Shown here: positions 3,861 through 30,352 of the stretch, piece after piece | Layout of the letters: every line of letters starts with the position of its first letter | How positions within the stretch are numbered: the stretch's first letter is position 1 | Assembly: GCA_963575745.1 (NCBI GenBank) | Contig: CAUYUJ010000096.1 | Coordinates: forward strand, 1 to 64,000 | Reading direction: 5' to 3' | Source of the DNA: Prorocentrum cordatum | Lineage: Eukaryota | Length of the DNA: 64,000 bases | Made by a program: the position numbers and the translations under genes | The notes under the pieces: model-generated | Told to the model about the DNA's origin: nothing | The model's database searches: none | The model's input: the letters and a program-made list of their open reading frames with translations, nothing else

Positions 3861-3962
3861 ATCACCTGGGACCGGATGCCCGCTGATCAACGTGGAGCGG
3901 CACTTCCGCGAGGGCCTCGTCGGTTCCTGGACGCTCGTCGCGAAGGTCTTGAGGGCGCCTGC

Positions 3963-4960: not shown

Positions 4961-5689
4961 GGACTGATTTGTACATCGAACCGTGGCCAGTCTGGTAGTC
5001 GTGGTCGTGCAGCAGGGTTCCCCGCTGGTGGTGGTGGAGGTGCTTCTCTACCTTGTTGTCGACCACGTCTGACTCTAACCTGTGGTAATCGGAGATGGCC
5101 ATCCGAACTACCAGCTCCGCTCGAGGCAGGTTGCCCTGCAGCAGGTTCAGCAGCATGTCTTCCTACGCTAATGTCGTGACTGCTTGCGCCCGCTGTAGGT
5201 CCGGCTCTGGTGCCGGGTCTCGGTGCTCTCAGCCGCGTAAGCGGTGATGCGGCTGGCGCCTCGGGTGGTGGCGCTGCTAACTCAGCAGGGGCCTGCGGTG
5301 CAGGTCCTGCTGCCGGTCCAGCAGGAAGCGGCGGTATCTGTCCATGATTGTCGGGCAGTTTCGAAGGCTTGGCAAGCTTGCGTTGGCCAGGTGTTAGTGC
5401 GTGTCCAGGCTTGTTCTTCCCATAGTTCTTCTTGCAGCTCGGACCTCCCCATTGGTGGTCGCCCTTATCGTGCCGCCTGCAATGTCTCGGACCTCTATCA
5501 TGAGAGGGAGAATGCATGTTAACGTTGTCCGCGCGCGCAGGACGCCCGAGCCCCCCCGATGATGGTCTCGCAATCGAGCCATCAGGTTGTCGAGGGGGAC
5601 TCGGGTCATCCAAGTCGTATCCCCTTACGTTAGTGGCCAGCGCGGTGGACGAATACGGGTAGCCATGGGAAGAATCACGAGTTACCTGG

Positions 5690-6230
5690 AAGAGATCGTG
5701 CGCGATCTGAACAGCATCGGCAAAGAGCGACTGCATCTTTTGAGTATATTGTGCAGCCACGGACAGTTCCTTGTTACATGCCGACGCGTGCTGATGATGG
5801 CCAGTACATCGTTTTCTTTCAAAAGGCTCTCGTATCAGTACCCCATGGGAGTCACGCAGGCCAGTAGCGCATTCATCCATGTTCACCTTGCAAGTGCCCT
5901 TGCTTTCACAACGTAGTCCATGGTGGCATCTGATCCACCCAAGTCCCCACTGGTTGTTCTCGTAAGTAGAATCGTCGAATATCATTTTGACGTACAACCA
6001 CCCTCCCACATAACTTAATCTGTGGCAGCTCTTCTTTATGATGTTCGTGCCACGTGTCGTAGTTAACCTTTGCGTTGACATGAGAAGCATCACTGCATCT
6101 TGGACATCCTTGTTGCCAAGGTCAACAGAGGTGCGTTTGTCGAGGTTTCCCCCAGAAGACAGACACTCGGCTGAATGCTAATTGAGAGATGCCTCCAGTT
6201 CCTCCGCGCGATTCCAACATATCTACCTTG
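5690..6230 (-). pseudogene. Methyltransferase-like domain upstream of integrase (frameshifted)
   Basis: Hand translation of 6230-6090 gives VDMLESRGGTGGISQLAFSR / SSGGNLDKRTSVDL; downstream MDECATGL...CTGHHQH...AAQYT. No clear PC motif seen. Confidence 0.5.
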
Positions 6231-8157
6231 TTGTGTCGTCCGTAACACAAGGTGGGGATTATGGAGAATACATCTGCGTAGGATTCAGCAGGTTGCCCCG
6301 CAAGTAGTGTGATGAAGGCCTCCTCTTCATCGTCGCTGTCCGTGTCGGAGTCAAGAGGTGCGTCGGTGTAGTGCGCGCTACATTCGAGTCCTTTCAGGTT
6401 ATCTCCACAGTCGTCGTTGCTTTCTTCGGCTATTTTGGGTATCTTGCGTGGCTTGATGTCAGCTTCTTTGTCTGCTTTCTATTTTTCTGTGTTTACTTCT
6501 GGCATCCGTTGGTAGTGCTGTCTGTTGTCCTGTCTCAGGTGGGCTAAGTGTCGGAAATTCGGGAATCGAGGGGAGCGCGCGGCCGCGCTCAATCGAAAGG
6601 GGAGGGGGGCGATCGTCATCGATGATCGCCACTCGCCTTGAGCGTGGACGTGAGCTGCTATCTCCCAGGAGAGTCGGTTCCGGCTGCTCCCAGTACAGTC
6701 GGGTACGAATGCTAGTAACACCATTGGGTAATGGTGCGTTGTAATTGTGCCCGATAGGCTGGTCCTGGGTCTTGATGTCTTGGATGATCGTGTTCTCGCC
6801 CAGGTTCATCGTCACCCGTCTAACAACATGATCCCACTCGGGGCCATTCTTCCGATACTGAATGTAAGTTCGAGCTCCTTTATCGACTCGAGTATGGATA
6901 CTAAGATCTGCAGCGCTTGTGTGATTCCTCTGCGTTGTATGTAGATCCATCAGATCAAATAACCTTGCGGTCATGATCGCGAGCGTCTTGTTGCGCCATT
7001 CGGCCTTCTGAACACCTTGTCCGTGCCAATCTAGGATCTGCTCAGTAGGTTGTGCAGGTTTCCCTGCTATGTTGCATGCGCATCGCCATAAGTTGGTCGG
7101 GATGCGCGTGCAGGTAGTCGCCACTTGCAGATATGATCTGCTGGGCAACGAGTTAGCGCGGTCGTACTTGAGGCCGAAGTGGCAGAAACGCATACGCATG
7201 ACTCGTACATCAAGATCTTCAATAGCTTCTCGTATGGGACATTGTTTCCAGAAGTATCCCGGTGGTCCAACAAGTACAAGAGTCATACATAGAGCCCGAA
7301 CTTTGGACATCAAATTTTGGATGCCCTGGTAGTGTGGCCCTGCCCTCTTGCCAGGCAGCCTCGCATGCCAATCAGCAGGTGTTGCCACCCGCAACAGTTG
7401 GTAATCGCCCGAGAGAAATGCACCCAAATACTGTGTGCCAGTGGAGGTCATTACCTCTGTATGTGTAATACGGTCGCACATGTATCCACGGGCTCGGAGT
7501 TCAACGCAAGCTGTCCGTATATCTTCAATAACAAATGCACGAGAATCATCATGATGCGGCATTTTTTGTTGTTTCTGCAGCGGCCACACAGCCGGGTCCA
7601 CTGCTGGTCGTGGCAGCCGCGCAGCCGGGCTTGCCGCGGTCCCTGGCACGCGCAGCCGGTGCCTGGGAAAAGAATGCAGCATTCCCCGCGTTTGCTGACA
7701 GTACCTGGGTGTTCGGCCTGTCTGAGCAAGCGCGAGTGGCCGTGGCGCGCGCCTGCCCCCGTCGCTCGTTTGGCGATGGGGGCGTCCAAATGCCTGTGCC
7801 ATGCTTTTGCCATGCTGCGCTGCAGAGCCGCTGCTCGAAGTAAAAACATCAAACTTCTCAGCGGCATCATCCCCTTCCGCAGGTGTCCCTGCCTGTGCAT
7901 CGGGCGGCGTCCACTTCGTGCCTTCCTCGTATATGGCCTGATATACCTTCGCCTGCAAATTGCGTAAGGCGAAGTCCTTGTCGGCCGAGGTCGGGTTAGT
8001 CCCGAAGGACGTACTCCTGCGATGCCAGGTCTTCCAGGTGTTGTTCACCAAAGACTGGATCGTGAAAGCGAACGTCTCCTCGTTGATGGAGAAACTGATG
8101 CCCTTTGTGTTTTGTGACATCATATATGCGTGGGCATCGCTCACAGCAGGTGTCCCT

Positions 8158-8548
8158 GGGGTTGGCTCCGGATCAGATGCCTCTTTGACGAGCAATGGAT
8201 CATCTTCGCAATGAGGGTTGGCCGTAATGGTAAACGACATCGACGCTTTACCCTCAGTAGCCGTCCCGCACTCGTCAGCCATGAGTGCCAGATGTCCAGG
8301 AAGTGTCTTCATCAAATCAAGTACTCTAGCACCCTTTTCACATCGGATCTTGTACATCTCCGCGCCAGGGATGATCATCTTCTCGTGCCCCTGCTCCAGG
8401 GTCAGGATGGCCCTCATGTTGGACATGCTCCTAAGACCCAGGATGGCAGGGAGGTTCCCACCAGAACCCTCAGCGACATTTGCAGAATGCGTTTCAAGTC
8501 TCGGAGCAGCAGGTGTCCCCGCCGGATCTCCCCTTTCTTTGCGCGCGA
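8158..8548. repeat. ~390-bp diverged direct repeat, copy 1 (partner 12800-13188)
   Basis: Visibly collinear sequence. Both encode MSNMRAIL.LEQ.HEKMI.PGAEMYKI...EDDPLLVKEASDPEPTP. Confidence 0.95.
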
Positions 8549-8552
8549 TCTT

Positions 8553-11500
8553 TTTGGTCGCGGCCGCGAGCGAAGAGCGCAGGCAACGAACAGGATGTCC
8601 GGGCCGACGGGCAAGCCTAATTAGTAATTAGCTACAAGACGCACCGCTAGCCGGCCGGCCCACTTACAAAGCAGCCGTGGGGCTGTGCGGGAAGCTGACG
8701 GCAGAGGCATCCTGGGGGGCTCGGGCACGTGCAGTCTGACAAAATGTAGAGAAATTCGTTGCCTGCCGTGAGGCATAGACCACGCAGAGACATGGCGTGC
8801 ACCGGGGCTGACGTGCCCGTCATACAGGGTGGGGGCAGGCGCGAAGCCCGATGAGCGGGTCGCCAGTGGGGCGCCATGCCCAATCCTTCCCAACGACGTG
8901 TGCTGGCTAGGGGAGCTGAGCTGCCGAGGAACGTGGAGCGTCGCAAACCTGCCGGAGGAGGGGGGATGAGCCCGGGGTGTTGTTGCGGCTGCGAAAAACT
9001 AAACCACTCCGGCGCGGTCACAGCACCCGAAAGTCCACCAGGCAATGCACGTGGTAGGCCCGGGCGACCGCGAGCCGGCCCCGTCGACAACGGCGCAGCG
9101 CCAGGCCAGATGGACTAGAGGAGAAAGCCAGGCAGGCGTGGTGAGCATCGCCAGCGAGGCAGGGGGATCCAGGGGGGTGCTGCGCAGGGGGCGCGGCAGC
9201 TGCCGCCTGAAGTACGCCGAAGGCCACCGTGGGGCGGCCTTATCCTCCAAGTACACGAAGCTGGCTGTGCCTCCAGGGGCGGTGCGTGGCGTGTGTCCAA
9301 GCTAGTGGGAAAACCATTGCTAGTAGGATGGGGCGACCTGGGTGAGGCTGCGCTGTAGCAGCCGCGCGGGGCCGACGGCCACAATGGGCCGACCTTGTCC
9401 GCCGCTTCCGCCCTTCCCCGCGGGAGTCCAGGGCCGCCGTCAACCGCGCGCCAAGTTGGCCTCCAGGGTCGCAGCTAACCGCCGCTGAAAGTGAGGAAAC
9501 TTACCGCGGTCAGCGGGGGTCCAGGGCGGCCCTGGGGAGGGGGGGCGAAGCCGTCGAAGCCAGTCGGCAAGCCTGGCGAAGCCCCGCCAGTAGAAGGCTC
9601 GAGGGGAAGGGGGGGGGTAGATGCGACCGACCGCTCCCGCAGGGGGCCACCGAGGGGAGCGCCGGGTGAGGGAAGCGCAAGGAAGCGAGCCCCGAGGGCC
9701 AAGGGCGGGCGGGGGGCACCCGCCCGGCCCGAGAGGGGCCCGATGGGGAGAGGCGAGGAGGAAGCACCTCAACGCCCTTCGAACGGGCCCCAGATCTGCC
9801 TGTCAAGGGACACGGCCGCCAATCTCGAGAGTCCTCCAGGGTCGCAGCTAAACGCCGCTGAAGTGCAAATAGTAACGAGTGATAAGTCCTTCGCCCGGTG
9901 TTGGTGCAGCTCGATGGTGTGGTCCAGAATGGTCATCCTGCCACGCTGAATGCTGGTCTGCCAACGCGGAGACTGGCACGTCTGTGGGGGCCGTGTGCGT
10001 TGGTTCCTCCAGGGTCGCAGCTGACCGCCGCTGATGTTCGGGCGCCTGCGGTGTGACAAAACTGTGACCTAGCTAAGTCGAGCTCGCCGCCGGGCAGGCG
10101 GGGGGGATGCTGGGGCCCACCTCCTGCCCATGGCCCGCGAGCTGGCTGTCGTCATCGGACAGCACTGTCTGGGGGCCAGGGGGGCCTGCTTGCGCGAGCC
10201 AGGCGGGCCCCGCCGTGCCAGTGAGGGTGAGATGTCGGGTGCAAGTGGGGGGTCCCCCAGTGTCGGGCCCAGAAAGGTGGATGGTGGTCCACTTATCCAG
10301 CGTGGGCTGTCTAGCTAAGCTGCGCCGTGGGTGAGATGTGGGGGTGGGCCTTCGCCCCGGCGGAGGGTGGCCCCGGGCGTTGCGGCCTCAGCTGGGCGCG
10401 GCAGGGTGAAACAAGCCCCTTCGGGGCAACGGGTGGCTGGAGGTGGGGGGGGCAGGTGTCCATGGGCAGGTCCCTGCTATGGGCGTTGAGGTAGGCCGTG
10501 TCGGGAGCGCGGCAGCCTTGGGTGCCGGAGTGGCTCTTAGCCCACCAGCGGGCCCGCTTGTCCGAGTCGCGGTCGTCCCCTCGTGGGGAGTATCGTTTGC
10601 CCCTGCCTTTCCAATCGGAGTCCGTCCATGGGGTATCTCGCCACTCCCACGAGGTCCACTCTTGCCAGCCCCGCCACTGGCTGGGGGTGGCAGTTCCAAT
10701 GGCTCCAGCCCAGGAGTCCCGTGCAGCTGCATGCGCGAATGCTCGGCTCTCGGCAATCCGGGGGGCCAGCTCGTCGCGGCTGCTGTGCCGCGTGGGGCGT
10801 GTGCGTGAGCGTCGTGCCGCGCGGAGTCCATGTGCTTGTCCCTAACTGCGACCCAATCTACGCCGAGCCTGAGTTCTCGATCCATCCGATATGCATCATG
10901 GTCGGCGTTGGTCCATGCTCCCAGGAAGTCCGAGCAAGTTTTGGGTGTGTTGAGTTTGGGATTGCTCTTGTAGCCTCCCTTGGGGTCCTGACACAGGGCA
11001 GCCCGCTTAACCCACGCATGCCAGATGCCGTTGAAGGAGCCTCCCAAGGTCTTTTGCCGGCGTGTAATCTTGTCCTGGATGGGCTCGTCCCTTTCCACGT
11101 CTGCAGCTGCAATAGTGCATCTGTACATGGGGCTGCCGCCCATGGGGTCGTTAAGGTTCTCGTAGTATGGCTGGGCACCCCTGCTGTCCTTCCCGGGTGC
11201 CCAGCGGGCCTCTGTGCGCATGAGATTACCCCTGGGTGACTTGACGGCGCGCCCTCTCCCGTCTTCAATATCTCCCGAGGCGGGACGGTCGCGTCCTCGG
11301 TCCCATGAAGTGCGGTTGGGCGTGCGGTCGATCCTGGCTCCCGCGCGATCCCAGGATGATGCGCTTCCCCTTCCAGAGCTGTCTTTGGCCCTCCGGAGTT
11401 CCAGGGCAGCAACTAGGTCAACGGTCCGGGAATAGGGGGTCCAGGCCTTGCCGCTTGGGGGCGCATCCGTTAATGCACCGAGGGGGTCGAAGAGGTCTGC

Positions 11501-12785
11501 TCCTTCGTCCTCGTCGTCGGCCAGTTCTGGGCTCGCGATCGGGCTCGTTTCCTTGGTTGTGGCTCATGCTGTTCCTGGGTCGTCCCCCCAGTCGGGCGCA
11601 TCGTGCTCGCCCTCGGTCTTGCATGCCTGCTCGCGCGAGTCCTGCACGTCCGTGGGCGGGTCGTTGGCCCCTTCGTTGCCGGGGGCCTCATCATCCGCCC
11701 TGGGGGGGTGACCTGGAGGTGCCTCTTGCTCCCGAACCTGGCTGTCCGATGGGGGGGCGTTTGCTACATCGGGTCTGTTCAGCCAGTATGCCGCCGGAGA
11801 GTTTGCCGTGGTTGCGGTCTCCATGGCGGTCTGAACTGGGCCCAGCTTCGCCAGTGATTTTATGGTGCCGTCGGCGAGGGTCGTGGGGTCCATGCCCACG
11901 AGGTATTGCACTAGGGTGCTGAGCCTGTGGCGAAGAGGGCAGGCGCCTCGCTGCTCATCAAGGTTGGCTGCGTATGCCTGCCATTTGCTCGCATGCATCA
12001 CGTTGGCCCGCGCCAGGTGGGACACCGCGCGTGCCGCTGCCGCTCGATGGCTGTCCCATGGGATACCTGGGGGATGGCTATTGTCCGGGATCGTCTCTCC
12101 GTAGATGTTGACCAGGAAAAGGCGCAGACACTGGGGGGGCCAAGACTCCTCGTTGGTCTTCGCGCCCGTGATCCCGAAGCCGTATTCCGCCACGTAGTCC
12201 ACCCACTTTTCGTAAACAGTGGGGTTCCACTCTAGCAGGAACTTGACCAATGAGCGCAGGGCGCTATGAGACCCCTGTCCTGTGAGCCCAGAGCTAGAGT
12301 GGGTTGGTAGGGCGGGCCCCGAGGGCGGGGGAATGTAGGGGGACAGGGACTTGATGTCCCGAGCCTCGGCATCTTGCCCGCTCCCCTCACCGTCGGGGTA
12401 GGGCTGGCCGGTGCTGGTGGGGAGGGTCAACCCTCCGGCTGGGGAAGCTGGTTTTGTGTAGGCGTCTGGAGCTGCGGCGCTGGCGCAGTCTGGGGTGAGG
12501 TAGACGGCGATGTCGTGGCGCTCAACTACCATTTCCGTTGTCGCTTCCCGCTTGGCTGGTGCCGTGGGGTAGATGCGCGAGGACTGCTGCCGCGTTCCAG
12601 ATGTGCGTGAGGCACCGCCTACAGGCCCAGCCGGCGTTCCACCTCCGTTGGGTCCAGAGGGCGAGCATGAGATCCCATGGCGGTAGACCAGTACTGTCAT
12701 CGACGGGTGCTTCAGGCTCTGGGTTCCGCAGGAAGCATCCTAGCGCTGGGCGGGTCGCTGCCCACTCCAACAAAGGTGATCCCGC
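8553..12785 (-). mobile_element. Unclassified GC-rich insert with two ORFs of unknown function (10388..11221, 11564..12700)
   Basis: Compositional shift between the two Copia-like copies. ORFs contain a loosely repeated ~50-aa helical unit. No catalytic motif recognised. Confidence 0.35.
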
Positions 12786-12799
12786 TGGGCAGGTTTCGC

Positions 12800-13188
12800 T
12801 GGGGTTGGCTCCGGATCAGATGCCTCTTTGACGAGCAATGGGTCATCTTCGCGCTGAGGGTTGGCCGTCATAGTAAACGACATCGGCCCTTTATCCTCAG
12901 TAGCCGTCCCGCACTTGTCAGCCATGAGTGCCAGATGTCCAGGAGGTGTCTTCATCAAATCAAGTACTCTAGCACCCTTTCCAAATAAGATCTTGTACAT
13001 CTCCGCGCCAGGCGTGATCATCTTCTCGTGCCTCTGCTCCAGGATCAGGATGGCCCTCATGTTGGACATGCTCCTCAGACCCAGGATGGCAGGGGGTTTC
13101 CCCCCAGAACCCTCAGCTACATTTGCAGAATAAGTTACAAGTCTCGGCGCAGCAGGTGCCCCCGCCGGATCTCGCTTTCTTTGCGCGC
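12800..13188. repeat. ~390-bp diverged direct repeat, copy 2 (partner 8158-8548)
   Basis: Collinear with copy 1, with scattered substitutions. Confidence 0.95.
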
Positions 13189-13829
13189 ACTCTTGCGGTG
13201 CAGGGATTTATCGATATCGCGGCGCCATGTCCCACTCCTGACACGAGGAGCCTCTTCGTCAGGGTCAGCCTCTTGATGGCGTGTCCGTGGGAGCGAGATA
13301 CCTGTTCAAAGGTCTGTGTCGTCTTCAAACCAGTGATATTGATATTGCTGCCAATATCCAGAAAAATCGTCAACATACCATTTCTCATAGTTCCACTGTT
13401 AGCTGCCAAGGCTAGTTCGTGGCGTTCACCAAACAGTCCAAGCACTTCATACAATGTCGCGCCGTGCATGCCTTTGCGGCGCCTCTGCTCCGACAACCAG
13501 TCGTTTCGTGACAAAGATGTAAAGGCATTCATATAGCCACGAGCCTCCTCTTCGGTCGTAGGATTCCTTTCAAAAAAGATCCAGGCTGTAGGATACTCGT
13601 CGTAGGTATATGGGTGTGATGCGGAGGTGGTGGGCAAGTTCAGGAACGTGTCCTCATCCGCGCGCATGCCCATTTGACCATCCGTACTTACCATAAACAC
13701 AATATGCAGCATATCGCGTTTGGATATCACACTACTGCCACTACGCGCGCTTACAGGGCTCTCCGTCCTGCGCTGATTGCGTGGGCGGAGGTCTCGCCCA
13801 TGCATCGCCGTGACGAAAGTTTCTTTCAA
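13113..13829 (-). pseudogene. Retropepsin-like aspartic protease region
   Basis: IFLDIGSNINITG (D-[TS]-G-like) followed by LLVSGVGHG. The LPAILG-type segment follows after a frameshift. Confidence 0.7.
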
Positions 13830-15929
13830 TTTGCCTTTTGGAATGACGCGCTCGTGCGGAGTTCGGAGTAATTTTACTAAAACTACTCCGCGCGCAGTCG
13901 CATCCCGCTCAATGATTTATATGGCTTGGTGCGGAGTAGTTTCCGATCCCGTTTCGGGGTGACGGAAATATTCACGTCTCCGGGATCGGAAACTACTCCG
14001 CCGAATGATCCCAGCACCATGTCATGTTAGGAATTTTGAGAGGGATGGGAGAGATCTTCATCATAGCAAAGTGAAGCAACTTTTGTCACTGCTGTGTATG
14101 GCACGTATGTATTTGGAGACTGAAGCCACTGAGCGCTCCTGCCAGTAGCCCTCTCCGTGCGCCTCAACCGCGTATCGTTCACTGGCACCGAAGGTGGTGC
14201 TGATATAGCAGGTGCCCCTGCGTTGTTGTCGGTCTCTGCCGCCAATGGCATGGGCGTGTCTATTGCAGGTGTCCCTGCAACTGTGATTGCCGCCGTTACT
14301 AGCCCCGCGCTGGCTGATAATGCAGGCTGCCCCGCTGGTGTCGTCATCGAGACTGCCACGTTGCCCGTCATCATCGCCGTGGCGCAGTTGAGCTCTTCGC
14401 GGAGGTCCCTGAGCTCGTTCGCCCCTCGGAGTATAGCTTCATGACGATTGAGTGACTCCTGATCTCCGGCAAGGGCGTAATGTAACCCGGCAGTAATTAA
14501 GCCAACACCCCGCAGATAGCGCAGGGGGCCTCACTTGCGAAACCTTCCATGTACCCAGCCAGCTGTCTACCCGCATGAGCATGTGCCTCTGGATCCCAGC
14601 AGTGTGCGTGGAATATGTGGCCGCACTGGAGCCCCCAGATTTTTATCATGGTTCATCAAAAAATGTCCAAGCATATGGCGCACTTGTTGAAGTCGCCGTC
14701 ACTGATGATGGGCGGTGTTGCCGATGGCCTGGTACGCGTCTGACGCTCCAGGGTGCTCTCACCAGCCTCGTACCGAATCGGTGAAACGTCGGTAGCTTCA
14801 TTGCTGCAAGCGTGGCTGGACTGATCGCAGGTGTCCCTGCTGTATTGGGATTGGCAGGTTGCCCCGCGCGGCTCAGCATTCTATTGGCCTGACGCTCCTG
14901 ATTTCGACGCTGAAGGGCAGAATGCGTCTCCAGGTTGGCCTGCTGCGCCTCATGTATGGCTAGGATTTCAGGGCGCAGCCCTCCCATGGTCGATGGCAGT
15001 ACTAGGCCTGGGGCCTGTTGCTGCACATCTTGATCCATGGGGGCGGCCAGATATCCATAGTGAGGGATCTGGCCTGGCACGCCTGATGCATGCCCTGAGC
15101 CACGCGTCAGCTGCGACTGGTGGAAGTCGTCGGCCGTCGCCCGAACATATGGGTTCTCGGGCTGTGCTCCCACTCGGGGAGTACCACTCACCTTTGCGTG
15201 ATAGTCAGGATAGAGTGGGTGATCCATTGGTGCTGCTGTTGAACGGTCAGCAGACGTTGGATCGTATGTCGGATGACTGAACAATCCTGGCACGTATCCA
15301 AACCGATTGGGGTTGTCCGGTGATGGATTTGGATCCGTAACATACTCCCAAGGCGGCGTCCAGTTGGCACTAGGGAGGTCAATGCCGTCCCTACGCGTAC
15401 TCTGAGCGGCTTCACGCATCTGCCGATGCATCTTGCTGACCAACCAAACTCTCGGTTCTCTGTGCAACATATTGGTCGGGAAAAGCAGGGTGCCCCGCAT
15501 GTGGGCATGGCGATGCAAATGGCGATGTCGCCTGTGAAGCCTGATAGAGCTGCGGATCCATTCGAATGCTTTGGAGCCTCGCCTGCAGGCTGTTCGTGCT
15601 CCCAACATTCTGTGGAGTACCAAATGGTGTGGTAGCTCCGCTCATTGGAGCAGATGAAGCAGGTTGTCCTGCAGGCACTGGCAGTTGTTGTACATGAGCA
15701 CGCCACGGTTCGTTAACGTACAGCGTGTCGGAGGGCGTGATGCCACTTGAAGTAATGCCTGTCACATCTGCGTTCTGAGCCTGTATCCGAGATCCATTAG
15801 ATCCCCCTGCAGGTGCCCCCGCGTAACGCGCGTCCTGTATCATAAGCACGCTTGAGAACTCGACCTCCTGAGCTGGAGGCGGACCGGGACACTTCAAATT
15901 TTAGGGGGTCATTGGGATGAATCAATCCT

Positions 15930-18041
15930 TCAAATATGATGCGTCGTTACGGAACTCGTACATTTTTCAATAGAAATATTACCACCCGGATACGGCTGAT
16001 TGCTGTCCCGCCAATATAAAGGATTGACCAATTTCCGTCCCACACGATTGTACAGACAATTGCGGTTGGGCAGAATCCCGATCAACTGGACCATGTGGGT
16101 CGGAGGAATCCTGCCGTTGCGGCCCGCTGGCATGACGATGTCATTTGCTGAGCGCCAAATCGGAATGTTGCCCCGAAGCAATTTCTTCAGGCTAACCATG
16201 GCCAACACCTCGGAATCAACGCGCAGGCCGGACTGGATTCGACTGTCACAAGGAAGGTATGGGCAACTGTGTACAAACTGTCTGCCCCTCTTCTTGCTGG
16301 TGTCGTCGGAACGGCATGACAATCCAATGCTAAGTATACTCGGAATATTTCCCCATTGAGTTCCATACATGAAATAACAAGGTGCACCAGGAGCGGACGC
16401 ATCAGTAATTCTCAAATATAATGATTCAGGGCACAATACACCAGGGCTGATGTGTCCGATACTTGGACGGATGAAGTGCGTGTCGTGCTTCTCGGAGGCG
16501 TACTTCAACTTCTTGAGCTGCAGCCTGTTCTTTTTCATTCCAGTCTCATCAACCGTGCCAATACATTCCAGCACAGCGTAAGCCTGGTACGCCCAATGCT
16601 TGTCCTTGAGCTTGTAGCGTGCAATCTCCAGGTGCTTGTAGAGGTAGGTCTCATATGGTTCAGCCGGCAAATTTTTGAGTAACTGTGATATTTCTGCCCA
16701 TCCGACGTATTCGTCGTAAGATGGTACTCCCCGCAGAAACATGTCCGAACGTTTACCTTTATGAAAAAAAGGTTTGAGACGGAGGGCAGTCGGCAGCCAC
16801 CCTGAAATCTGGCGCTGCTTCCCATAGCTGAACTTCGGCTTGTGAACATATTCTGATATGAAGACCCCTTCCAGATATTGCTTCTCAGAGTCAAGCGTGA
16901 GTAGTGGGCGTTTCCACAAAAGGTTGCGCACAACTTGGCGCGTGTGTGACTCTGGGTCATGATGAACGGCAGTGTCCACGAGGTTGCATTGGACCACCAT
17001 GTATCGATCAGACCCGTCGTCAATCTGGGGATTATACGCTGGGTGGATCTTTGTGCGGTTGGACGTGCGTATCCTTTCCCAGTACTCTCGGCACTCCAAT
17101 GGCACCCCCAAAGTGGGGGCAGGTTGTCCCGCTGAGCTCTGAGCAGGTTGCCTCGCGGAACTCTGAGCAGGTTGCCCCGCGGAGCGTGGGGCTGCCACTG
17201 GTGCGGCAGGTGCTGCGGCGCTCGCCGCCGATATGGCAGCGCCAGCAGTTCCCCTGGGCGTCCGTGGAGTTCCTGTGGGGGTACTGATATCGAAATCCTG
17301 AGGTGTCTTTTCCTTGATGTTATCAGACTCGACTGTCTTATCTTTGGGCGCCGTTCCTGGCGCCTTCGATGAGGTGGCCAGTAGCTTTCCAGCACCGCGT
17401 TTCGTAGAGGAAACATTCCTTGTCCGTCCTTCCAGCGTGGGCGCCCATCGTGTCCGGTGCGTCCGACCTGGTGCAGGGCCGCGACGTGCCACAGGTTCCT
17501 TTGGAGTAGGCGTACTGCTGCCCTGAAATGCAGCTGCTGCGGCAGCCACTGCTGGTCCTCTGGATCGTTGTCGATCAGCAGGTTGCCCCGCATGTCGCTG
17601 CTGCTTGCTGACCTCAGGGTTGGGATCATCTGGGCTCATTCTCTGCTTTCTCTTGGGTCTGAACTGATCGGGGCCAAGAGATGGGCTTGATGAATCAGAA
17701 GATGGGGGAATATCGATGATCGCCTCTGGCTTTGGCTTAGGAGTTGCCTTTGCCGTGGCTCCTGCCGGCGCCCCTTGTGCATGACGTATGGGGCCTCGGT
17801 CAGGATTCAGATCGACATTATCCGGCGCCCTGAGGGCCATGTTTTTAATGATGGTTGTGTGCTTACCTGAAACAAGTAGGCATTGGCGTTTCGTCTTTCG
17901 ACTATGCTTGTCTTTATCCAGCCAACACTCTGAGCACTGTAGGCAATCCGCCTCCCAGGAGATAGATCCATATCTCCTGTGACATCGTGCGCGGGGTCGA
18001 TCGGGGTATCCGTCTGACACGTGACGTCCGTAAGACCCCAA
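15930..18041 (-). CDS. Polyprotein segment with a Tpt1/KptA-like NAD+-dependent RNA 2'-phosphotransferase domain (~16080-16830), probably decayed
   Basis: Ordered motifs: ISGWLPTALRL, GWAEISQLL, KNRLQL, FIRPSIGHIS, MYGTQWGNIPSILSIGLS, GRQFVH, SGLRVDSEV, IWRSANDIVMPAGRNGRIPP. Confidence 0.8.
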   Translation of the reverse strand: MGSYGRHVSDGYPDRPRARCHRRYGSISWEADCLQCSECWLDKDKHSRKTKRQCLLVSGKHTTIIKNMALRAPDNVDLNPDRGPIRHAQGAPAGATAKATPKPKPEAIIDIPPSSDSSSPSLGPDQFRPKRKQRMSPDDPNPEVSKQQRHAGQPADRQRSRGPAVAAAAAAFQGSSTPTPKEPVARRGPAPGRTHRTRWAPTLEGRTRNVSSTKRGAGKLLATSSKAPGTAPKDKTVESDNIKEKTPQDFDISTPTGTPRTPRGTAGAAISAASAAAPAAPVAAPRSAGQPAQSSARQPAQSSAGQPAPTLGVPLECREYWERIRTSNRTKIHPAYNPQIDDGSDRYMVVQCNLVDTAVHHDPESHTRQVVRNLLWKRPLLTLDSEKQYLEGVFISEYVHKPKFSYGKQRQISGWLPTALRLKPFFHKGKRSDMFLRGVPSYDEYVGWAEISQLLKNLPAEPYETYLYKHLEIARYKLKDKHWAYQAYAVLECIGTVDETGMKKNRLQLKKLKYASEKHDTHFIRPSIGHISPGVLCPESLYLRITDASAPGAPCYFMYGTQWGNIPSILSIGLSCRSDDTSKKRGRQFVHSCPYLPCDSRIQSGLRVDSEVLAMVSLKKLLRGNIPIWRSANDIVMPAGRNGRIPPTHMVQLIGILPNRNCLYNRVGRKLVNPLYWRDSNQPYPGGNISIEKCTSSVTTHHI

Positions 18042-19539
18042 TCGCTGGACTCGTAACCTTCAGGGGCAGCGTCCGTAGGATCAACTTCTTCAGCCATCTC
18101 ATCATCTTCATCTTCACCAGCTTCTCGTTGGCCTTCTTCTTCTGATTTGTGATCAGCAGGTTTCTCTGCGTGCCAATCGCGATTGAACTGCGCCAAATAG
18201 TGAGTGGGTGTCAAGTTTTTCCAAACGAGGCTTATGCGGGCTATGTCGTCAGCTGTGGCATGGTCGTAATCGCTCTCCGTCAGCTGCTCTTTATATGGCG
18301 TAGTATTGGGATCGGTGCAATGACCCCGACCTTAACCATGAGACCAAATCCACGGTGTTCTTCTAAAACTCGTGCTTCTTGATGGACGTCTCATGGGGCA
18401 ACCAAGCCTGTCGCCAAAATATATTCGGGGCATGAGCAACGCACGTTTCTGTAGAGCTTCCGTTCCTCGATGATAGCCCTCTTGACGTTGCGCGTGGCCA
18501 TCTTATCTTGTGATTTGGTAGGTCCTGTCCTCGTCGAGCGTATGATCTTGCCTGCCTCATCTCGTTTGACCTTGTGAAGAGAATGCCAATGCTGGATTTG
18601 ATGCTCTCTCCAACCCTGATCCAGCCAGTATTCCATCTGACCTGAGGGTGTGTGCAGACGAGCCAATCCAGCTTCCGTGTAGCCTTTGAGACGCTGTATG
18701 CTATCCGCTGGACATTCCTCTCCTCGCGGTTGGTCAACTAGAGGCGGGCGTCCCCGCGAGCGCTCCCTCCCTGGATGAGTATCCAGTCAATTCGCCTGCC
18801 GTGGCGGGGCCTTTGGGGCCCCCCCGCGCCAGGGGGGTAAGGGCGTTGAACGCCGCTAGAACGAGCGCCACTGGAGCGGGCTCGCCTGCGATGTGGTGAG
18901 CGGCTGGGAACCCGACCGCGACGTATCGTGCGGTCACTGTCTTCCCGTTCGTCGTCCTCGCCGTCGTCGCGACAATTCTCCTTCCCCCAGGCTGGGCGGC
19001 TTGGAGATCGCTTCTGGCGGCTGATGGGTCGATCTGATGCAGCAAAAGTGTATTGAAATTCTTCAATATGACCGAGCTCATATTGAATGCGCTCAGATAG
19101 ATCACCAGCGTCTCGCGGGCTTCCTCGCAGAGGATCACCAGCAAGTAATAACATGTCTGTCGGATTTCCAATCGCCCGAGGATAGGGCACCGCAGGTATT
19201 TCTTCATCTGTTGCAGGCATAATAGATTCTGAGTCTGCGGGTGCCCCCGCCATGCCAAAGTCTCCTTCGGCGGGCGCGTGGAAGTTCTCGACAAAGTCAA
19301 TATCTGCAGGTTGCCCCGCGATGGGTATACCCAGCCATTCTGCCAAATCGATGCCGTTGTGGCCAGTGAACACCTCCTCGAAAAGCTCGTCGGCGTAATT
19401 CTCGAAGGTCATGCTGGCACTGAGATACCTGGCAGCCATGAAGTGAACAATTGTGGCTGAGCTGTCGGCAGAGTCGGCTAATAGCGACTCCCAATCAACA
19501 TACTCTACGTCGGAGTCTGTTTGAGCCAAATGCATTGAC

Positions 19540-21411
19540 GGACCCCTGCCTCTTCCATCACCTTGGGGGCACTCACGTCGAAAATGCTGTGTGCTGTGGC
19601 ATATGTCGCGCTCCATTGTTTTTACCGTTGGCATCCTTTGGATTTCCCCGCCATCCCTTGCCTTTGCCTGTTGTGTGCCTGCGGTTTCTGCCAGCGCCAA
19701 AGCGCATTTCTTCATGCTGAGGTCCAGTAAGAGACGCCGAGAATGCTAGTATGCCTCTGCCATGTAATGGCCAACGCTGGCCTTTGCCTTTACTTCGACC
19801 CTTGCCTTTTCCCTTAGTTGATCGTCGTACAATGCGTCTTACTTTTCGGACTGGTTTCTTCATGAAGCTCCGCCAACGACGCTTGTGTTTTTGATAGCTT
19901 AAAAAATAAGCATTGAGCTTGTTGCTCTTCAGTAAGGTATGTAGGCATATCAGAATAATCCAGGGCGGTAGCTTCGTCATCTGAAGACGTAACCGTATCG
20001 GTGCCGGAGTCGAAGTCGGACTCGGAGGGTTGCCCCGCTGAGCCCATTAGGATCATGGCTTGTATGGGGGAGACCGCGTCGGGCGGTCCCCTAGGTCTGG
20101 CCCAGGAATCTTGCGACCCCGAAGCCGTTCCACCATTCTGAGCCAGCTGTGTAGTGGTCTCAGTTGACTGTGGATCATCATTCCAGACGTTGTTGGCAGG
20201 TTGCCCTGCGTTGGCCTCCACATGGAAGGTCTCGGTTCGGTGACCGTGACTAAAGATACCACCAATACTGCCGGGGGTTCTCTCAGCAATGTGAGCAGAT
20301 GACCTCATACGTTCAAGTAGAGCGTCAAATTGTTGAAGGTCTCTCGGCATGTGGTGGTTCAGAGGCTGCAGGAGTTGTTGTGCACGCGATGTCCCCACTC
20401 CAAAGGCTCTGAATATAATCGCTGTTAGGATTTGGAAATTGGGGATGTTGAAGCCGGCTCTTTCAGCTTCGTAGCGGGCTATCTCAAGCCGTGCTAACGT
20501 CTGGTCGATACGTTCACCCGCATGGACTCGAAAGTCAATAAGAGCCGTACCAGAATTGAGTTAGCGCTCCTCTTCTAGGCTCTCGAACTTCGTGCTTAAG
20601 AGGAACATAATGTGGGTGGCGCCATCGGTGTGGCGACCACCTATGTTGACGCCAAAATGGATAACTGCTGGGGGACTCTCATGGCTATGGTCTGTGCGAG
20701 ACCTCCCAAACTTCGCTGCAACGCTGCAGCCTGCTGGGAGGGCGTCGTATTGCCTGTGGTCACACTGATCCAGGCATGTACTTCGCGGACGAATTCGCGA
20801 AAAGGTACTTGACCGGCAGGGTCCCGATGGGGGCCGGTCGTTCTTGTGTCGTCTCCGCCACGCATATGTCCTACCGCACACCCAATAGCGACCCATGCGA
20901 GCCCAAATATAGTAACACCAATCCAACGGCCTCGTAGGTCGTAATCGGATGTAGTCGGTTGGGACTTCTGTTGTTTAGTCGTAAGTCTGCGTGGGGTCGG
21001 AGGCGGCAATATGTCGTATCGCATGTTTCCATGGATTATGTCTTCGAAGAAATTTCCAATTGGAGTAAGTGGGTGGACTCCAGGAGTGTAGTAGCGCAGG
21101 GATGTAATATGTAAGTAAGAGACCTCCGCTTGGACAGAGGTATCGCTGCAAGTTTCCTTGCGGTACTGCGTAGTTATATTCATTCCTCCGCGCAAACCCA
21201 CTGCACCCTGATGTTCCACCATATCTGTAATCCACCAGAAAGTGCCGTGGATGGTGAGGAGTAGAGCAAGAACTGAGCACCATAGGCCAGATCCGCTACC
21301 AAGTTTGAAGGGGGCTGGGAGGCCCAGCCAGCAGCTTCGCCTCAAGCGAAGCCAGACTCCCGTTCTGCTGTACCGTAGTAGCCATAGTCCCGGTATGAGA
21401 GGATGTGCCAT
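19540..21411 (-). pseudogene. gag-like region with N-terminal hydrophobic segments and decayed CCHC knuckle
   Basis: PFREFVREVHAW...QQAAALQRSLGGLA; GKGKG runs; GNPKDANGK; (R)DICHSTQHFRRECP. Frameshifted. Confidence 0.7.
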
Positions 21412-21559
21412 CTCAAGCAGTAGGAGGATCCTTTTGGTCTCGATAGCGATTGTGTGCCTCGCAATGAAACGCAGTCATAGTTGGGCGGCCGGCCGCTTGA
21501 GCCGACGCGGCCGCAGGCGCACGCTCGCTTCCACTCCTTACGTCCCTCATCTCGCTTTA

Positions 21560-22295
21560 GAGTTCCCCAGCCCCCACGAGGACCCCCAACGGGCCTCAAG
21601 AACTCAAGAGGGCCCACAGATGCGATTTTGATGGCTCTAGAGGGCGAGGCACATGGGGGACCCTCCTTTCTTTTGATGGATGGCCTCCAAGATGGCTCCA
21701 AGAGACCCTCCAGAGCTCCCAAGAGGGCCCCAGGGGAGCCTCAAAGGCCCACCTTAAAAAACCTCAGAAATGCCTCGAGAGGATCCCTAAGAGGACCCAA
21801 GAATACCACCAGATGGTTCCAGGAGTCCTCGCCCGTGTCGCCCTCATCCTCGTCCCCGCCCTCGTCAATGTCCTCAATGTCCTCGTCGTCCTCCCCTGTC
21901 CTCGTCGTTCTCATCCTTCTCCTCCTCCTCGTCCTCCTCCTCCTCGTCATCGTTATCATCCTCGTCCCCCTCCTTCTTCGCCTCTTCCTCCTCCTCCTCC
22001 TCCTCGTCCTCCTGCTTGTCCTCGTCCTCGTCCTCCTTCCCGTCGTCCTCATCCTTTTCCTGATCCTCGTCAATCTCCTCCTGCGCCTCCTCCTCCTCCT
22101 CCTCCTCTTCCTCCTCCTCCTGCTCCTGCTCCTCCTGCTCCTCCTGCTGCTCCTCCTCCTCCTCCTCCGCCTCCTCTTCCTCCCCTTCGTCGATCTCACC
22201 AATGTTGCCCCCCTTGCTTCACTACATACTTACCAACGTCCCTCCTTCAGACAACTCCCCTGGGCATCGTGTCTGGATGGGCTGGCGGGGCTCCT
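21560..22295. repeat. Dispersed composite repeat (CCCAAGAG-rich, (CTC/GTC)n, conserved ~95-bp tail), copy 1
   Basis: Tail ACCAATG...CAGACAACTCCCCTGGGCATCGTGTCTGGATGGGC matches ~24713-24808. Related CCCAAGA-rich tracts at ~36.1-36.5 kb and ~43.1-44.1 kb. Confidence 0.8.
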
Positions 22296-22962
22296 TTTTG
22301 TCGCAACCGCAAGCGAAAACGCAGGCGGCGAGTAACGGAACTGGCGGGCCGCGCGCGAACATAATTGCCTAACGCGCCAGCGAAGAGAGCCTGGGCGGCA
22401 CCTCAGATCACCGGAAGCGGAAGGGGGTGTGGGCTGCAGCTGCCAGGAACCAGGTCCAGGAACGCGCGCGTGCAAAAGCCAACCGAAGTCGGGGCGCAGC
22501 CAAGCGCGGGAACGAGACCAGGATGAAGCCAAGAACGCCACCACAAAGGATCGCAGAAACCGGCAAGGCCGGGGGAACTCACTGACCAGGAACCTGGGCA
22601 TGGAAGTGGCGCCACCAAAGTCGCACGCAACGCTGACAAGTTGCCGCAGAGGGCGAGGACAAGACGCAGGATCAACCCCACGAGTCCTCATGCACCCACC
22701 CCCTGAAAGGGGGCAGCTCGCTTGCAGTGCATACCAGGAGGTAAAGCTGTCACCGATGGCCAGGAAGACGTCACTGACCAGGAGCCAGCACGAGTGGCGC
22801 CACTGAAGTCGCACACTCGCTCCTGAGGACACGCGCGCTCCCGAACACGGACGCCGACGTATGAGGAGAACTGACCAGGAACTGGGCAGGGGAACGCCTC
22901 AAGCACGTGGACGAGTGAACACGAATACCGTAGACACTGCCGTCAGAAAACCGTGGACGTAG

Positions 22963-23067: not shown

Positions 23068-23363
23068 CTGAGGAGGGGGGGAGGCTGGCGGGGCTACGCG
23101 GAGCGTGAAGAATATCACAGCGAGGGTTTGGGGAAATAACTACCCAAAACCAAGAGTGTTGTTCAGTCATAGGTCCAGGTCGCCCTCTGAGGCGACTCGG
23201 CGCCCGAGCCCGTCCGGCCAGCGAGCGGGCGCGGGATCGAGCCTGTTCGGCACCCGGCAGCCATCGTCGTCGTCGTCGTCGTCGTCGTAGTCGTCGTCGT
23301 CGTGAGCAACGTCTTCAACATCGTCGTCGTCGTCGTCGTCGCCGCCGCCGCCGCCGTCGCCGC

Positions 23364-23405
<42 letters not shown>

Positions 23406-23716
23406 GGTCGTGGTCGTCGTCGTCGTCCTCCCCCCCCTCTTCCTCCTCCTCCTCCTCCTCCTCCGTCCTCCACGTCCTCCTCCTCGTTCTCCTCGTCGTC
23501 GTCGTCCCCACCCTCCCCCTCCTCCTCCTCCTCCGCTTCCTCCTCCTCCTCCTCCTCCTCGCAGCACGGCAAGAGGGCGAGGTCTAATCAGACCTCCCAG
23601 GGGTACGTGGCAGAGGCGACTGCTGCACGCCCGAGGCAACACCCAGGAAGAGCGAGGTCTAGCCCGGCTCTGCGTGTATCACCACTCCGCCAGAACCCCC
23701 AAAAAGGCGCAGGATA

Positions 23717-27211: not shown

Positions 27212-28301
27212 CTGGAGCGGGCGAAAGCGAGTGTGCCCACTGTCGCGGTGGTCGGACACCCCCCTAGGGCACGAAGCATACGAGAGGTGCGCCCAGACCG
27301 ACAGGGTCCTAAGTCGAGTCTCCCTGGGGAGTGTGCGACGCGTGTGAAGGGTGTGCCCAAGAAGTGTGCCCACGAGTCCCCGCCCCCCCGCCTCCTCTCC
27401 CCTCCCCCTGTGATCTCGCCGACACCTTCCCCTAGGACGCCTCCAGCCTCCTCTGCCTGCCCGCCGCCGCTCTGGACGCAGTGGACCTTGCGAGCCCAGG
27501 GTACTTAGCCCCGGGAACCACAGTCAATCATCCAACCTGCTGGCTGCGTGATGCTGCGGGATGCAGGCCAGCGGGGGGCCAGAGTGGCTTCCCCACCCCG
27601 TCTCCGCCCGCATCCCCATCACCCCGTCCCCCCTCCCCCAGCTCCCTCCCCCTCCCATCCCCCGTCCCCTCCCCATCACCCTGGCACCCCAGCCCCCCCT
27701 AACCCCTTCCGCCGCCCCGATCCCTCCCCCCCTGCCCCGCTCGTCCCCCCCCTTCCCTGCAGACGGCGATGCTTGCTTCGTACGGCCCGGAAAACGTAGG
27801 GAGAGTCACGGGGGGCCTCTGCATGCATTCTCACGTTGTTGTGTTGTTCACATGTCACGTGCATACATTCTCGTGTTGTGGCAATTGGCGCTGCTTGCAT
27901 TGTTCACGCATTCGCAGGTCATTGCGTTGCTTGCCTTGTGCATTCATTCCTCGTCGCCGCAAGTTTTGGGTTCGAACCGCAGGTTTCGGGAAAGCATCCG
28001 GGCCAGGGTCCCACCCCCTGGCCCTTGAACCCACCCACCCGCCCCGGGTGCAGGCCTTGGGCTGGGCTGGGGAATATGCACCGTTAAAGCCCCTTGTTGG
28101 TGCCGGGTCGGTGTCGTTTGTGTGCGTGTGTGTGCGTGACGCGTCACTGGCACAGCTACGGAAGCCCGCGGCCGCTGCCCCCCGCGGCCGCTGCGCCCCC
28201 CGCGGCGCAGGCCCCCCGGGGATTCGAGTCTCGTTTTCCACGTCCACCCTTGACTGTCCTCCCTTCCATCCCGCAACCTCTCATCATGAGTACCCACCCC
28301 A

Positions 28302-28302
28302 C

Positions 28303-28334
<32 letters not shown>

Positions 28335-28497
28335 AGACGACGACGACGACGACGACGACGACAACGACGAAGGCGACGACGACGACGACGACGAAGCCGA
28401 CGACGACGACGATGAAGGCGACGACGACGACGACGAAGGCGACGACGACAACGCCGACGATGACGACGACGAAGGCGACGACGACGACGACGAGGAC
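28302..28497. repeat. (GAC)n microsatellite, intronic
   Basis: Imperfect GAC run. Confidence 0.9.
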
Positions 28498-28510
28498 TAG
28501 GACCAGGGTC

Positions 28511-28741
28511 CTCCGCGGACTCTTCGTAGACCCACGCGAGGAAATCCTCGTACCGGACGTCGTCGCCGACGCCCGCGCGGGCCAGCGCGAGGTCCAAGGA
28601 CTCCGGCCCGGCGGGGCTCGCCCGGCACACGTTGCGCATCACGCCCTCGAAGACCGGGCGGGGCAGACGGCCGGTGCCGCCGGGGTCCAGCCTGCGGAGA
28701 CCCTCCACGAGACGCTCCTTCGCAGAGGCCATCGCGGGCAT
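28511..28741 (-). CDS. Predicted exon 1: EF-hand-pair-like domain
   Basis: MPAMASAKERLVEGLRRLDPGGTGRLPRPVF...GDDVRYEDFLAWV. GAG|GA donor in phase 0 matches the acceptor at 27211. Confidence 0.6.
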
Positions 28742-29259
28742 GGACTGGCCCCTCCGATTTCGCTGAAGCTCGAGGTCAGCGCAACCTGAGGCGAACCGAG
28801 AGAGCTCGAGCCTGCTGAACCGAGACGGCTCGAGCCCGCCCTTCATTGGCTGTCCGTGCGTGGTGTCGTGCCTCTCCTCCTCCTCCTCCTCCTCCTCCTC
28901 CTCCTGGCTCTTCCTACCCCCCCCCCTTGCGCCCGCCTCGGCGCACGACAGTCCACCCCGTGCTAAGGGCTAAAGAGCCAGCCAAGGCTGAGGGGCCAAG
29001 GCCGAGGTCCCCGCCCGCACACGAGCCGGAGGGCCGCGACAGGGGCCCGAGAGCGCCCGGCGCCCCCTTCGCGCCGAGCGGAGCACGGCTTCTCCTCGCA
29101 CTCTCGGGCTCTCGCACCGCCCCCTCTCGACCTGGCCCTCCTCGCAGTCGTGAGAAACATCACGACGCGAGGTGTCTTCGACCGCTCCTTCCTCTGGCAG
29201 CCGCTCCTGGGCCCTAGGGACCGTCAGACATCGGCTCAGGACGAAGAAAAAACAGCCCT

Positions 29260-30352
<1,093 letters not shown>

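Follow-up and report, generated by a model that had tools for sequence, protein, structure and literature searches.

The first 64,000 nucleotides of contig CAUYUJ010000096.1 of Prorocentrum cordatum (GenBank assembly GCA_963575745.1), hereafter the window, contain an open reading frame (ORF), P0001, with a domain of the Tpt1/KptA RNA 2'-phosphotransferase family. We interpret P0001 as a fragment of a degenerate member of a family of giant Ty1/copia-like retrotransposons; a eukaryotic-type Tpt1 would be an integral, selected module of this family and most likely active in its intact members. We put the probability of this reading at about 0.6. The element family appears to use the enzyme, because intact relatives keep it under strong selection. 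The relevant parts of the frame are as follows.

15930 to 18059, minus strand: P0001, stop-to-stop open frame of 709 aa; a low-complexity linker (the first ~415 residues) with three hairpin/AGQPA motifs, then the Tpt1-like domain
about 16050 to 16811, minus strand: Tpt1/TRPT1-like domain, both lobes (P0001 residues ~417-670; Pfam envelope 16131-16535)
16776 to 16778, minus strand: His site of the LRH motif of the catalytic tetrad; CTC, Leu428 in the window copy
16365 to 16367, minus strand: His site of the HGT motif (NAD ribose contact); TAT, Tyr565 in the window copy

Among the first eight neighbouring frames scanned with Pfam, only P0001 gave a match, which was to the PTS_2-RNA profile (PF01885, Tpt1/KptA) at residues 509-643 (E = 4.6e-9, 37 bits against a curated cut-off of 26 bits). 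This was the profile search proposed in the original prediction, which had been made from the sequence alone. A phmmer comparison of P0001 with the PDB retrieved human TRPT1 (7yw3, 1e-9) and mouse TRPT1 (7yw2, 3e-7). The Tpt1 motifs that had been listed were all found in P0001 and in the same order: ALRL at residue 425, GWAEI at 453, KNRL at 510, IRPSIGH at 530, YGT at 565, RQFVH at 593, SGLR at 610 and SANDIV at 637. Two expected histidines had been described as one base away, and this was borne out. The CTC of Leu428 and the TAT of Tyr565 both read CAC (His) in two relatives, L001 and L002, described below.

In Clostridium thermocellum Tpt1 (CthTpt1), the Arg-His-Arg-Arg tetrad (R18, H19, R68 and R121) contacts the 2'- and 3'-phosphates of the junction, and the His and Thr of HGT contact the NAD ribose (PMC6333775). 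The window copy reads R-L-R-R at the tetrad and YGT at the motif that contacts the adenosine ribose of NAD+. Its SGxR donor-loop motif and the RSAN..V/I nicotinamide contacts are present as SGLR and RSANDIV. TRPT1 loses both activities when the LRH His is changed to Ala, and the HGT His/Thr double mutant is lethal in yeast (PMC10415124). Because both lost histidines are essential in TRPT1 mutants, the window copy is predicted to be unable to act as an enzyme. The decay of this copy may plausibly be recent, as had been suggested.

Intact relatives were found in metagenome contigs, the scan of which returned three loci. L001 (8780 bp) carries a single frame of 2653 aa, uninterrupted and still open at the contig end; residues 63-2653 of it are collinear with window positions 21309-12935 at 38-66% amino acid identity (tblastn), the window requiring several frame changes. 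Its PTS_2-RNA match (residues 1387-1620, 1.1e-16, 61.8 bits) spans positions 5-177 of the 177 in the profile. L002 (1487 bp) is open along its full length, with LRH and HGT intact. A third open sequence, P0166 (1627 aa; 98% identity to L001), likewise matches the Tpt1 (62.9 bits) and RING profiles. In L001, RING fingers above cut-off lie at residues 2130-2183 (nt 7207-7368; zf-RING_11 33.8 bits, zf-RING_2 29.5 bits), and a CCHC knuckle lies at residues 636-652, where zf-CCHC scores weakly (E = 0.23) and the C-x2-C-x4-H-x4-C pattern is intact. Since the single frame of L001 joins an N-terminal region, the CCHC knuckle, Tpt1, the RING finger and a protease-like part, the Tpt1 domain most probably belongs to the element.

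An exhaustive HMMER search with the 290-aa domain region retrieved 242 proteins at E ≤ 1e-3, 61 at ≤ 1e-10 and 14 at ≤ 1e-30. The best matches were short fragments, 45-76% identical; one fragment of 79 aa, from a eukaryote protein collection, was 100% identical. Among proteins of 389-1241 aa, a word-indexed search for homologues of the Tpt1 part came up empty, and a search of phage records gave no match. Fragments at least 42% identical to the L001 domain were taken as members of the family (83 among the 150 matches listed). Residues were counted in these 83 at the sites that each fragment covers.

LRH Arg: kept in 8 of 8 fragments
LRH His: kept in 8 of 8
KxR Lys: kept in 25 of 30 (others Glu 2, Asn 1, Thr 1, Met 1)
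KxR Arg, third Arg of the tetrad: kept in 29 of 32 (others Trp 1, Ile 1, Lys 1)
HGT His: kept in 21 of 32 (others Arg 8, Pro 2, Tyr 1)
HGT Thr: kept in 23 of 32 (others Ala 3, Ile 2, Cys 1, Ser 1, Asp 1, Asn 1)
fourth Arg of the tetrad: kept in 28 of 33 (others Lys 2, Ile 1, Gly 1, Thr 1)

The SGxR Ser was kept in 29 of 34 fragments, the SGxR Arg in 32 of 33 and the RSAN Asn in 24 of 31. The family fragments, from which the original prediction had proposed to rebuild a consensus, retain the R-H-R-R tetrad and HGT, and the tetrad persists even in lineages that have no more than 45-55% identity to the window copy. The domain is present in many copies and in diverged relatives and is not a one-off capture. 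A quick maximum-likelihood tree placed 13 family rows and three unlabelled fragments on one side of a branch (SH-aLRT 97) and 38 other Tpt1 homologues on the opposite side; the tree is unrooted, its rows are unnamed, and it holds 54 of the 62 aligned rows, the eight with fewer than 120 residues having been dropped. The family clade in this tree is single and deep, and its internal branches are long.

Selection was estimated from L001 and L002 as the ratio of nonsynonymous to synonymous substitutions (dN/dS; Nei-Gojobori). The Tpt1 domain gave dN 0.107, dS 0.917 and dN/dS 0.116 over 234 codons, and the upstream linker gave dN 0.235, dS 0.347 and dN/dS 0.68 over 228 codons; both values come from one sequence pair, with a dS near saturation in the domain (0.92) and unequal between domain and linker. 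The ratio in the domain, an estimate that had been called for earlier, is not neutral. By these figures the Tpt1 domain is under purifying selection in the family.

The segment might instead be a passenger, a piece of host TPT1 that was captured once, is useless to the element and is decaying everywhere. The window copy has indeed lost two essential histidines, and the HGT His is missing in 11 of the 32 family fragments that cover it. One contig of metagenome X2 joins position 15772 to 19235, so that some copies may be without the Tpt1 segment, and contig depth is lower over the Tpt1 bins than over neighbouring bins, although depth cannot rank parts. Useless cargo is hard to reconcile with the dN/dS contrast between the domain and the linker alongside it, with the long unbroken frames of L001, L002 and P0166, with a tetrad conserved across diverged lineages, or with the depth and long internal branches of the family clade. 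We consider a passenger role very unlikely because of the constraint on the domain.

The family domain is, as judged from profile comparisons, a eukaryotic-type Tpt1/TRPT1. A profile of 13 family sequences matched only 7yw3 (2.6e-15), 7yw2 and 7yw4 in the PDB, which are human, mouse and yeast TRPT1, and the bacterial KptA equivalog models scored at most 25.6 bits against cut-offs of 231-239. An AlphaFold2 (AF2) model of the L001 domain built from a 62-row alignment had a pLDDT of 83.1 and a pTM of 0.76, but the alignment included cellular Tpt1 rows and the model is not independent of the sequence evidence; an earlier model from 13 rows (pLDDT 46.4) was unusable. Foldseek searches with the model gave 21 matches at E ≤ 0.001, all Tpt1/KptA, aligned over 246-257 columns. 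The top match was mouse TRPT1 (E = 5.8e-12; TM score 0.72, normalised to the target), followed by human TRPT1 and C. thermocellum Tpt1. The two-lobe fold, with a winged-helix RNA lobe and an NAD+ lobe of the ADP-ribosyltransferase (ART) type, is thus seen in the model of the intact relative L001, not in the window copy.

Despite an identity of 25-27% to TRPT1, the family domain has in common with eukaryotic Tpt1/TRPT1 (PF01885; PDB 7yw2, 7yw3 and 7yw4) the two-lobe fold, the Arg-His-Arg-Arg tetrad, HGT, the SGxR donor-loop motif, IRAxxGH and RSAN(D/G)(I/V). Unlike the cellular enzymes, it lies inside a retroelement polyprotein (estimated at more than 4000 aa), is multicopy and forms its own clade; the window copy differs further in having lost the two essential histidines. 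The RNA lobe is also altered. The distance from the LRH His to the KxR Arg is 84 residues in the family and 45 in human TRPT1, which leaves about 39 extra residues in this lobe. The RNA-binding Ser-Lys pair upstream of LRH is Ser-Glu in seven of the nine family sequences that cover it, Ser-Lys in one and Ser-Gly in the window, and mutating both residues of the pair in mammalian TRPT1 is lethal in yeast (PMC10415124). Because of this insertion and the Ser-Glu in place of a pair that is lethal when mutated, the canonical 2'-phosphate junction may not be the substrate of the family enzyme.

Since the tetrad, HGT and SGxR, which are all that is known to be required for the attack of a nucleic-acid phosphate on NAD+, are kept, the intact family Tpt1 is most likely an active enzyme made within the polyprotein. 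It would be made together with the Gag-Pol-type protein and would work on nucleic acid close to reverse transcription. As to its job, we tentatively favour, at somewhat less than even odds, the NAD+-dependent removal of 2'-phosphates from RNA. The target phosphates would be internal, at a junction, or terminal, after cleavage by a metal-independent RNase and opening of a cyclic phosphate. The enzyme would act on RNA of the element itself, or on a tRNA or tRNA-half primer, so that the reverse transcriptase (RT) can prime on it and copy it. This job is favoured because the tetrad is complete, down to a third Arg on which 2'-phosphotransferase activity strictly depends but which ADP-ribosylation needs only in part (the mutant retains 20-50%; PMC10415124). 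It is also favoured because a subset of Tpt1 enzymes removes terminal 2'/3'-phosphates, because Drosophila copia primes from a half of tRNAiMet, and because a similar role has been proposed for viral KptA. Viral KptA domains, those of phages and those embedded in a few RNA-virus polyproteins, are proposed to clean RNA ends that metal-independent RNases leave behind.

As the main alternative, the domain may act chiefly as a nucleic-acid ADP-ribosyltransferase that caps 5'-phosphorylated ends of the element's cDNA or RNA, as TRPT1/KptA does in vitro. Capping would shield these ends from exonucleases, ligation and host sensing, or host nucleic acids would be marked. TRPT1 does ADP-ribosylate nucleic acids (PMC10415124), and the conservation of the first Arg, the His and the fourth Arg of the tetrad and of HGT fits this activity equally well, as all are needed for it too. 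The Ser-Glu pair and the insertion of ~39 residues likewise suggest a substrate other than the tRNA splice junction. The third Arg of the tetrad, dispensable for ADP-ribosylation, is nonetheless kept in 29 of 32 fragments, and Pfam scans of the relatives revealed no Macro or NADAR hydrolase partner in the polyprotein. We regard a main role in capping as unlikely.

Whichever the reaction, a selfish element that keeps a constrained Tpt1 implies a substrate that matters for retroelement replication, and the primer tRNA, the genomic RNA and the cDNA ends are candidate places for it. Phosphate removal could be carried a step further, to a giant Copia-like lineage that can no longer reverse-transcribe without an NAD+-using RNA-end repair enzyme of its own. 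The polyprotein Tpt1 would then clear the 2'-phosphate of a tRNA-half primer, or of nicked and re-ligated genomic RNA, inside the particle, and would act with the strand-specific GNRA-type hairpin motif, the RING finger and the methyltransferase-like domains described below. Such a dependence is speculative and, in our estimate, improbable. If true, a retrotransposon would for the first time be seen to encode an RNA repair or nucleic-acid ADP-ribosylation activity, and the long-obscure non-splicing role of Tpt1 could be tested in a natural setting.

The remaining parts of the element in the window are as follows.

21310 to 21680, minus strand: upstream non-coding end of the element; boundary from the drop in contig depth alone, no long terminal repeat (LTR) or primer binding site (PBS) identified
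12935 to 21309, minus strand: 5' part of the element copy, collinear with L001; several frame shifts
19563 to 19604, minus strand: remnant of the CCHC zinc knuckle; first Cys replaced in the window copy, intact in L001
14512 to 14781, minus strand: remnant of the RING finger, split by a frame shift; tblastn match to L001 residues 2098-2182
13212 to 13778, minus strand: putative aspartic protease region FLDIGSNINITG with a DIGS motif
8628 to 12739, strand not given: GC-rich interrupting piece, flanked by a duplicated element segment and absent from other copies
6459 to 8627, minus strand: frame P0003, family unassigned; also in P0156 and P0168 upstream of the integrase
3865 to 4920, minus strand: integrase, residues 420-771 of frame P0002 (3862-6177)

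The predicted order in the family is of Gag-Pol type: N-terminal region, CCHC knuckle, Tpt1, RING finger, putative protease, two unknown (possibly methyltransferase-like) domains, integrase, RT and RNase H-like tail. In P0168 a single frame of 2020 aa contains the P0003-like domain, the second unknown domain, zinc fingers, the integrase, RT and the RNase H-like tail. The first 694 bases of L001 encode the same tail, which would fit a contig running through a collapsed LTR, or two tandem copies. The original prediction placed Tpt1 between gag and protease. Collinearity was upheld by the L001 frame; the two labels fared less well, gag being named from position and the CCHC knuckle, and protease from the DIGS motif and weak leads. 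The protease region had no Pfam match and no PDB match at E ≤ 10, and its atlas leads to RVP families reached just 0.82-0.83 (below 0.9). The RING finger, which follows Tpt1 and precedes the protease-like part, is likewise an unusual accessory module for a retroelement polyprotein.

The two domains between the protease-like part and the integrase lie at 6459-8627 and 4920-6177, both on the minus strand, and correspond to residues ~30-560 of P0156 and ~1-560 of P0168. Neither, P0003 included, had a Pfam or NCBIfam match, and the sole lead from any tool was an atlas DNA_methylase cluster at 0.81 for P0003. The second domain shows methyltransferase-like motifs by eye (ELCGGAGR, LQPxC and REQP), a label that is not counted as a finding.

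The affinity of the element was read from its integrase. By eye, frame 3862-6177 has the zinc-binding residues, D-D-E and an SPYSALFGRQP-type motif of integrases; the rve profile reached only E = 0.1 and a comparison of the frame with the PDB gave no meaningful match. Twelve homologues were 38-56% identical, and four of the 12 had a precomputed PF07727 (RVT_2) annotation. RVT_2 was found in all three integrase-RT proteins scanned (E = 4e-6 to 3e-5, nearly the whole profile). The integrase precedes RT and RNase H in the relatives P0154, P0159, P0160 and P0168, and stands alone in the window. Because the integrase relatives run into RVT_2 and an RNase H-like tail, with integrase before RT, the element is classed by sequence as Copia-like. 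An integrase-bearing DNA element without LTRs, suspected from the RT-less window, was dropped in view of this fusion to RVT_2.

The window matches P0156 residues 38-1092 at 7541-3940 (tblastn). As the match stops near 3940, where relatives go on to RT, the window copy is probably 3'-truncated. Pfam scans of 76 minus-strand frames from 1-24000, together with eight frames beyond 24 kb, yielded no match to RT, RNase H, gag or protease. The description as an LTR Copia element was therefore sustained in its Copia part; LTRs were not detected, nor were RT or RNase H in this copy. The 3' truncation means that missing LTRs here do not exclude LTRs in the family.

Several points weigh against the proposed reading. 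The single-pair dN/dS estimate, the shared alignment behind the L001 model, the altered RNA lobe and the X2 joint have been given above. No single record contains both Tpt1 and RT, and the family order is an overlap chain from L001 through the window to P0156 and P0168. Within the window the Tpt1 and integrase parts are 4.1 kb apart and may belong to two partial copies (overlap 93% identical). The RVT_2 scores of 24-27 bits in the relatives are below the gathering cut-off of 31.6. No LTR, PBS or polypurine tract was found, the element ends share no repeat and the 5' non-coding part has no alignment to L001; the window also contains no tRNA gene against which a PBS could be tested.

With RT, RNase H and LTRs lacking in the window, and gag and protease lacking in Pfam, one could also suppose that a host TPT1-like gene, or part of some other mobile element or endogenous virus, lies here amid retrotransposon debris. 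The L001 frame, with its N-terminal region, CCHC knuckle and RING and protease-like parts around Tpt1, speaks against this. So do the collinear continuation of the window into an integrase whose relatives are fused to RVT_2, the thousands of diverged contig pieces over the stretch, and a strand-specific 14-nt motif that recurs in the Tpt1 ORF as well as elsewhere in the element. We find this explanation barely credible.

That motif, GCRGGRCAACCTGC, occurs nine times in the window, always on the minus strand within the element, where 0.03 occurrences are expected by chance. Three copies lie in the Tpt1 ORF; the original prediction had noted a family hairpin in this segment. The positions are as follows.

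17119, 17167 and 17578, minus strand: GCRGGRCAACCTGC in the Tpt1 ORF (span 17119 to 17591)
5126, 6288, 14854, 15659, 19306 and 20196, minus strand: the other six copies

L001 has 11 sites at 2137-7538, all on the plus (sense) strand, with 0 expected. As RNA the motif folds into a 5-bp stem with a four-base loop (GCAA or ACAA), at -7.6 to -9.5 kcal/mol. It encodes AGQPA at 10 of the 11 L001 sites, in linkers flanking recognisable domains: the AGQPA sites at 1083 and 1737 flank Tpt1, and those at 1938 and 2197 flank the RING finger. At nt 7053 of L001 it is read in another frame. The motif is common to two element lineages. Its synonymous positions hardly vary and one site uses another reading frame, so that a constraint seems to act on the nucleotide sequence itself, as RNA or DNA. 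The motif might serve as a signal for packaging, processing or recognition, and the peptide AGQPA might mark sites cut by the protease.

Contigs of four public runs were aligned to 3000-22900. In the DNA run X1, 15,794 contig pieces fell on these 19.9 kb, Tpt1 bins included, of which 1088 were ≥99%, 3052 were 95-99%, 6909 were 90-95% and 4745 were <90% identical. Eight X1 contigs cover position 16439 and 32 cover position 17450. Many diverged copies exist, the Tpt1 part included, and the element is a dispersed multicopy family. Summed depth, which is not a copy number and cannot rank parts, was distributed as follows.

bins 3000 to 3663: 30
bins 3664 to 8311: about 950-1550
bins 8976 to 12295: 60-80
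bins 12960 to 21591: 147-2454
Tpt1 bins 15616 to 18271: 181-663

The G+C content is 54-58% at 12-22 kb and 4-8 kb, against a background of 61-72%. The sole long direct repeat here pairs 8146-8445 with 12789-13088 at 93% identity. Two X1 contigs join 8552 to 13216 and represent other copies, which lack the 4.66-kb piece. Either a single copy has been interrupted in the window, or two partial copies lie there. With its tetrad His changed to Leu and its HGT His to Tyr, with frame breaks and the 4.66-kb interruption, and lacking RT, RNase H and LTRs, the window copy is dead as far as its sequence can tell.

Tpt1 on a selfish replicator has a precedent in the viral KptA proteins of phages and RNA viruses, where the domain sometimes lies within a polyprotein and is proposed to clean up 2'-phosphate or cyclic-phosphate RNA ends with NAD+. 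That survey covered viral proteomes, not retrotransposons, and calls KptA 'absent or rare' in eukaryotic viruses; the carrier here, in contrast, is a reverse-transcribing Copia-like element with many genomic copies. The SmTCL Ty1/copia elements of Symbiodinium (~10 kb; PMC5776459) are alike in having the integrase upstream of RT and then RNase H, and in their high copy number in a marine protist. The family polyprotein is much longer and contains Tpt1, a RING finger and two unknown domains; the window copy, unlike SmTCL, is without LTRs, PBS and RT, and RVT_2 is weak in its relatives. The DNA methyltransferase (DNMT) retrotransposons of dinoflagellates and charophytes (PMC5890265) likewise keep a host-type nucleic-acid enzyme in their coding region, although there it is a methyltransferase, not an NAD+-dependent phosphotransferase/ART. 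According to that paper, the Symbiodinium Copia superfamily is without any DNMT domain.

Our literature search found no report of Tpt1/KptA in a retrotransposon. The word Tpt1 is absent from the DNMT-retrotransposon paper (PMC5890265) and from a review of accessory retrotransposon domains; the supplementary domain tables of PMC5890265 and PMC9503650 lay outside this search. Tpt1 is nearly universal, and its role beyond fungal- or plant-type tRNA splicing has been called obscure. With the present family, an NAD+-dependent nucleic-acid enzyme joins the short list of accessory enzymes captured by retrotransposons, and an unusually large Copia-like polyprotein with Tpt1, a RING finger and unknown domains is defined in marine eukaryotes (GC-rich host).

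A few further observations concern the surroundings. The interrupting piece at 8628-12739 (4.1 kb, 64-66% GC) is moderately repeated in run X1 (depth 60-80), and two adjacent stop-to-stop frames of exactly 391 aa each, in the same frame, 10388-11563 and 11564-12739, had no Pfam match. The element end at 3664-3940 abuts another high-depth repeat, which would explain why depth stays high ~280 bp beyond the end of homology; by eye, the plus-strand frame of that repeat at 3161-3886 resembles the C-terminal part of a different integrase. Outside the element, a minus-strand frame of 673 aa at 25502-27523 matches the Pfam ADP-ribosyltransferase families ADPrib_exo_Tox (27.2 bits against 23.4) and ART (27.1 against 22.3) at residues ~393-515, a second NAD+-using transferase domain less than 10 kb from the Tpt1 ORF. 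Long triplet-type repeats lie at 21850-22230, 23220-23470 and 28230-30120. Large tandem arrays occupy 38890-42100, with a 90-nt period at 38.9-40.3 kb and periods of 8-9 nt at 40.1-41.5 kb, and the composition of 40-42 kb is strongly skewed (GC skew -0.52, AT skew 0.72).

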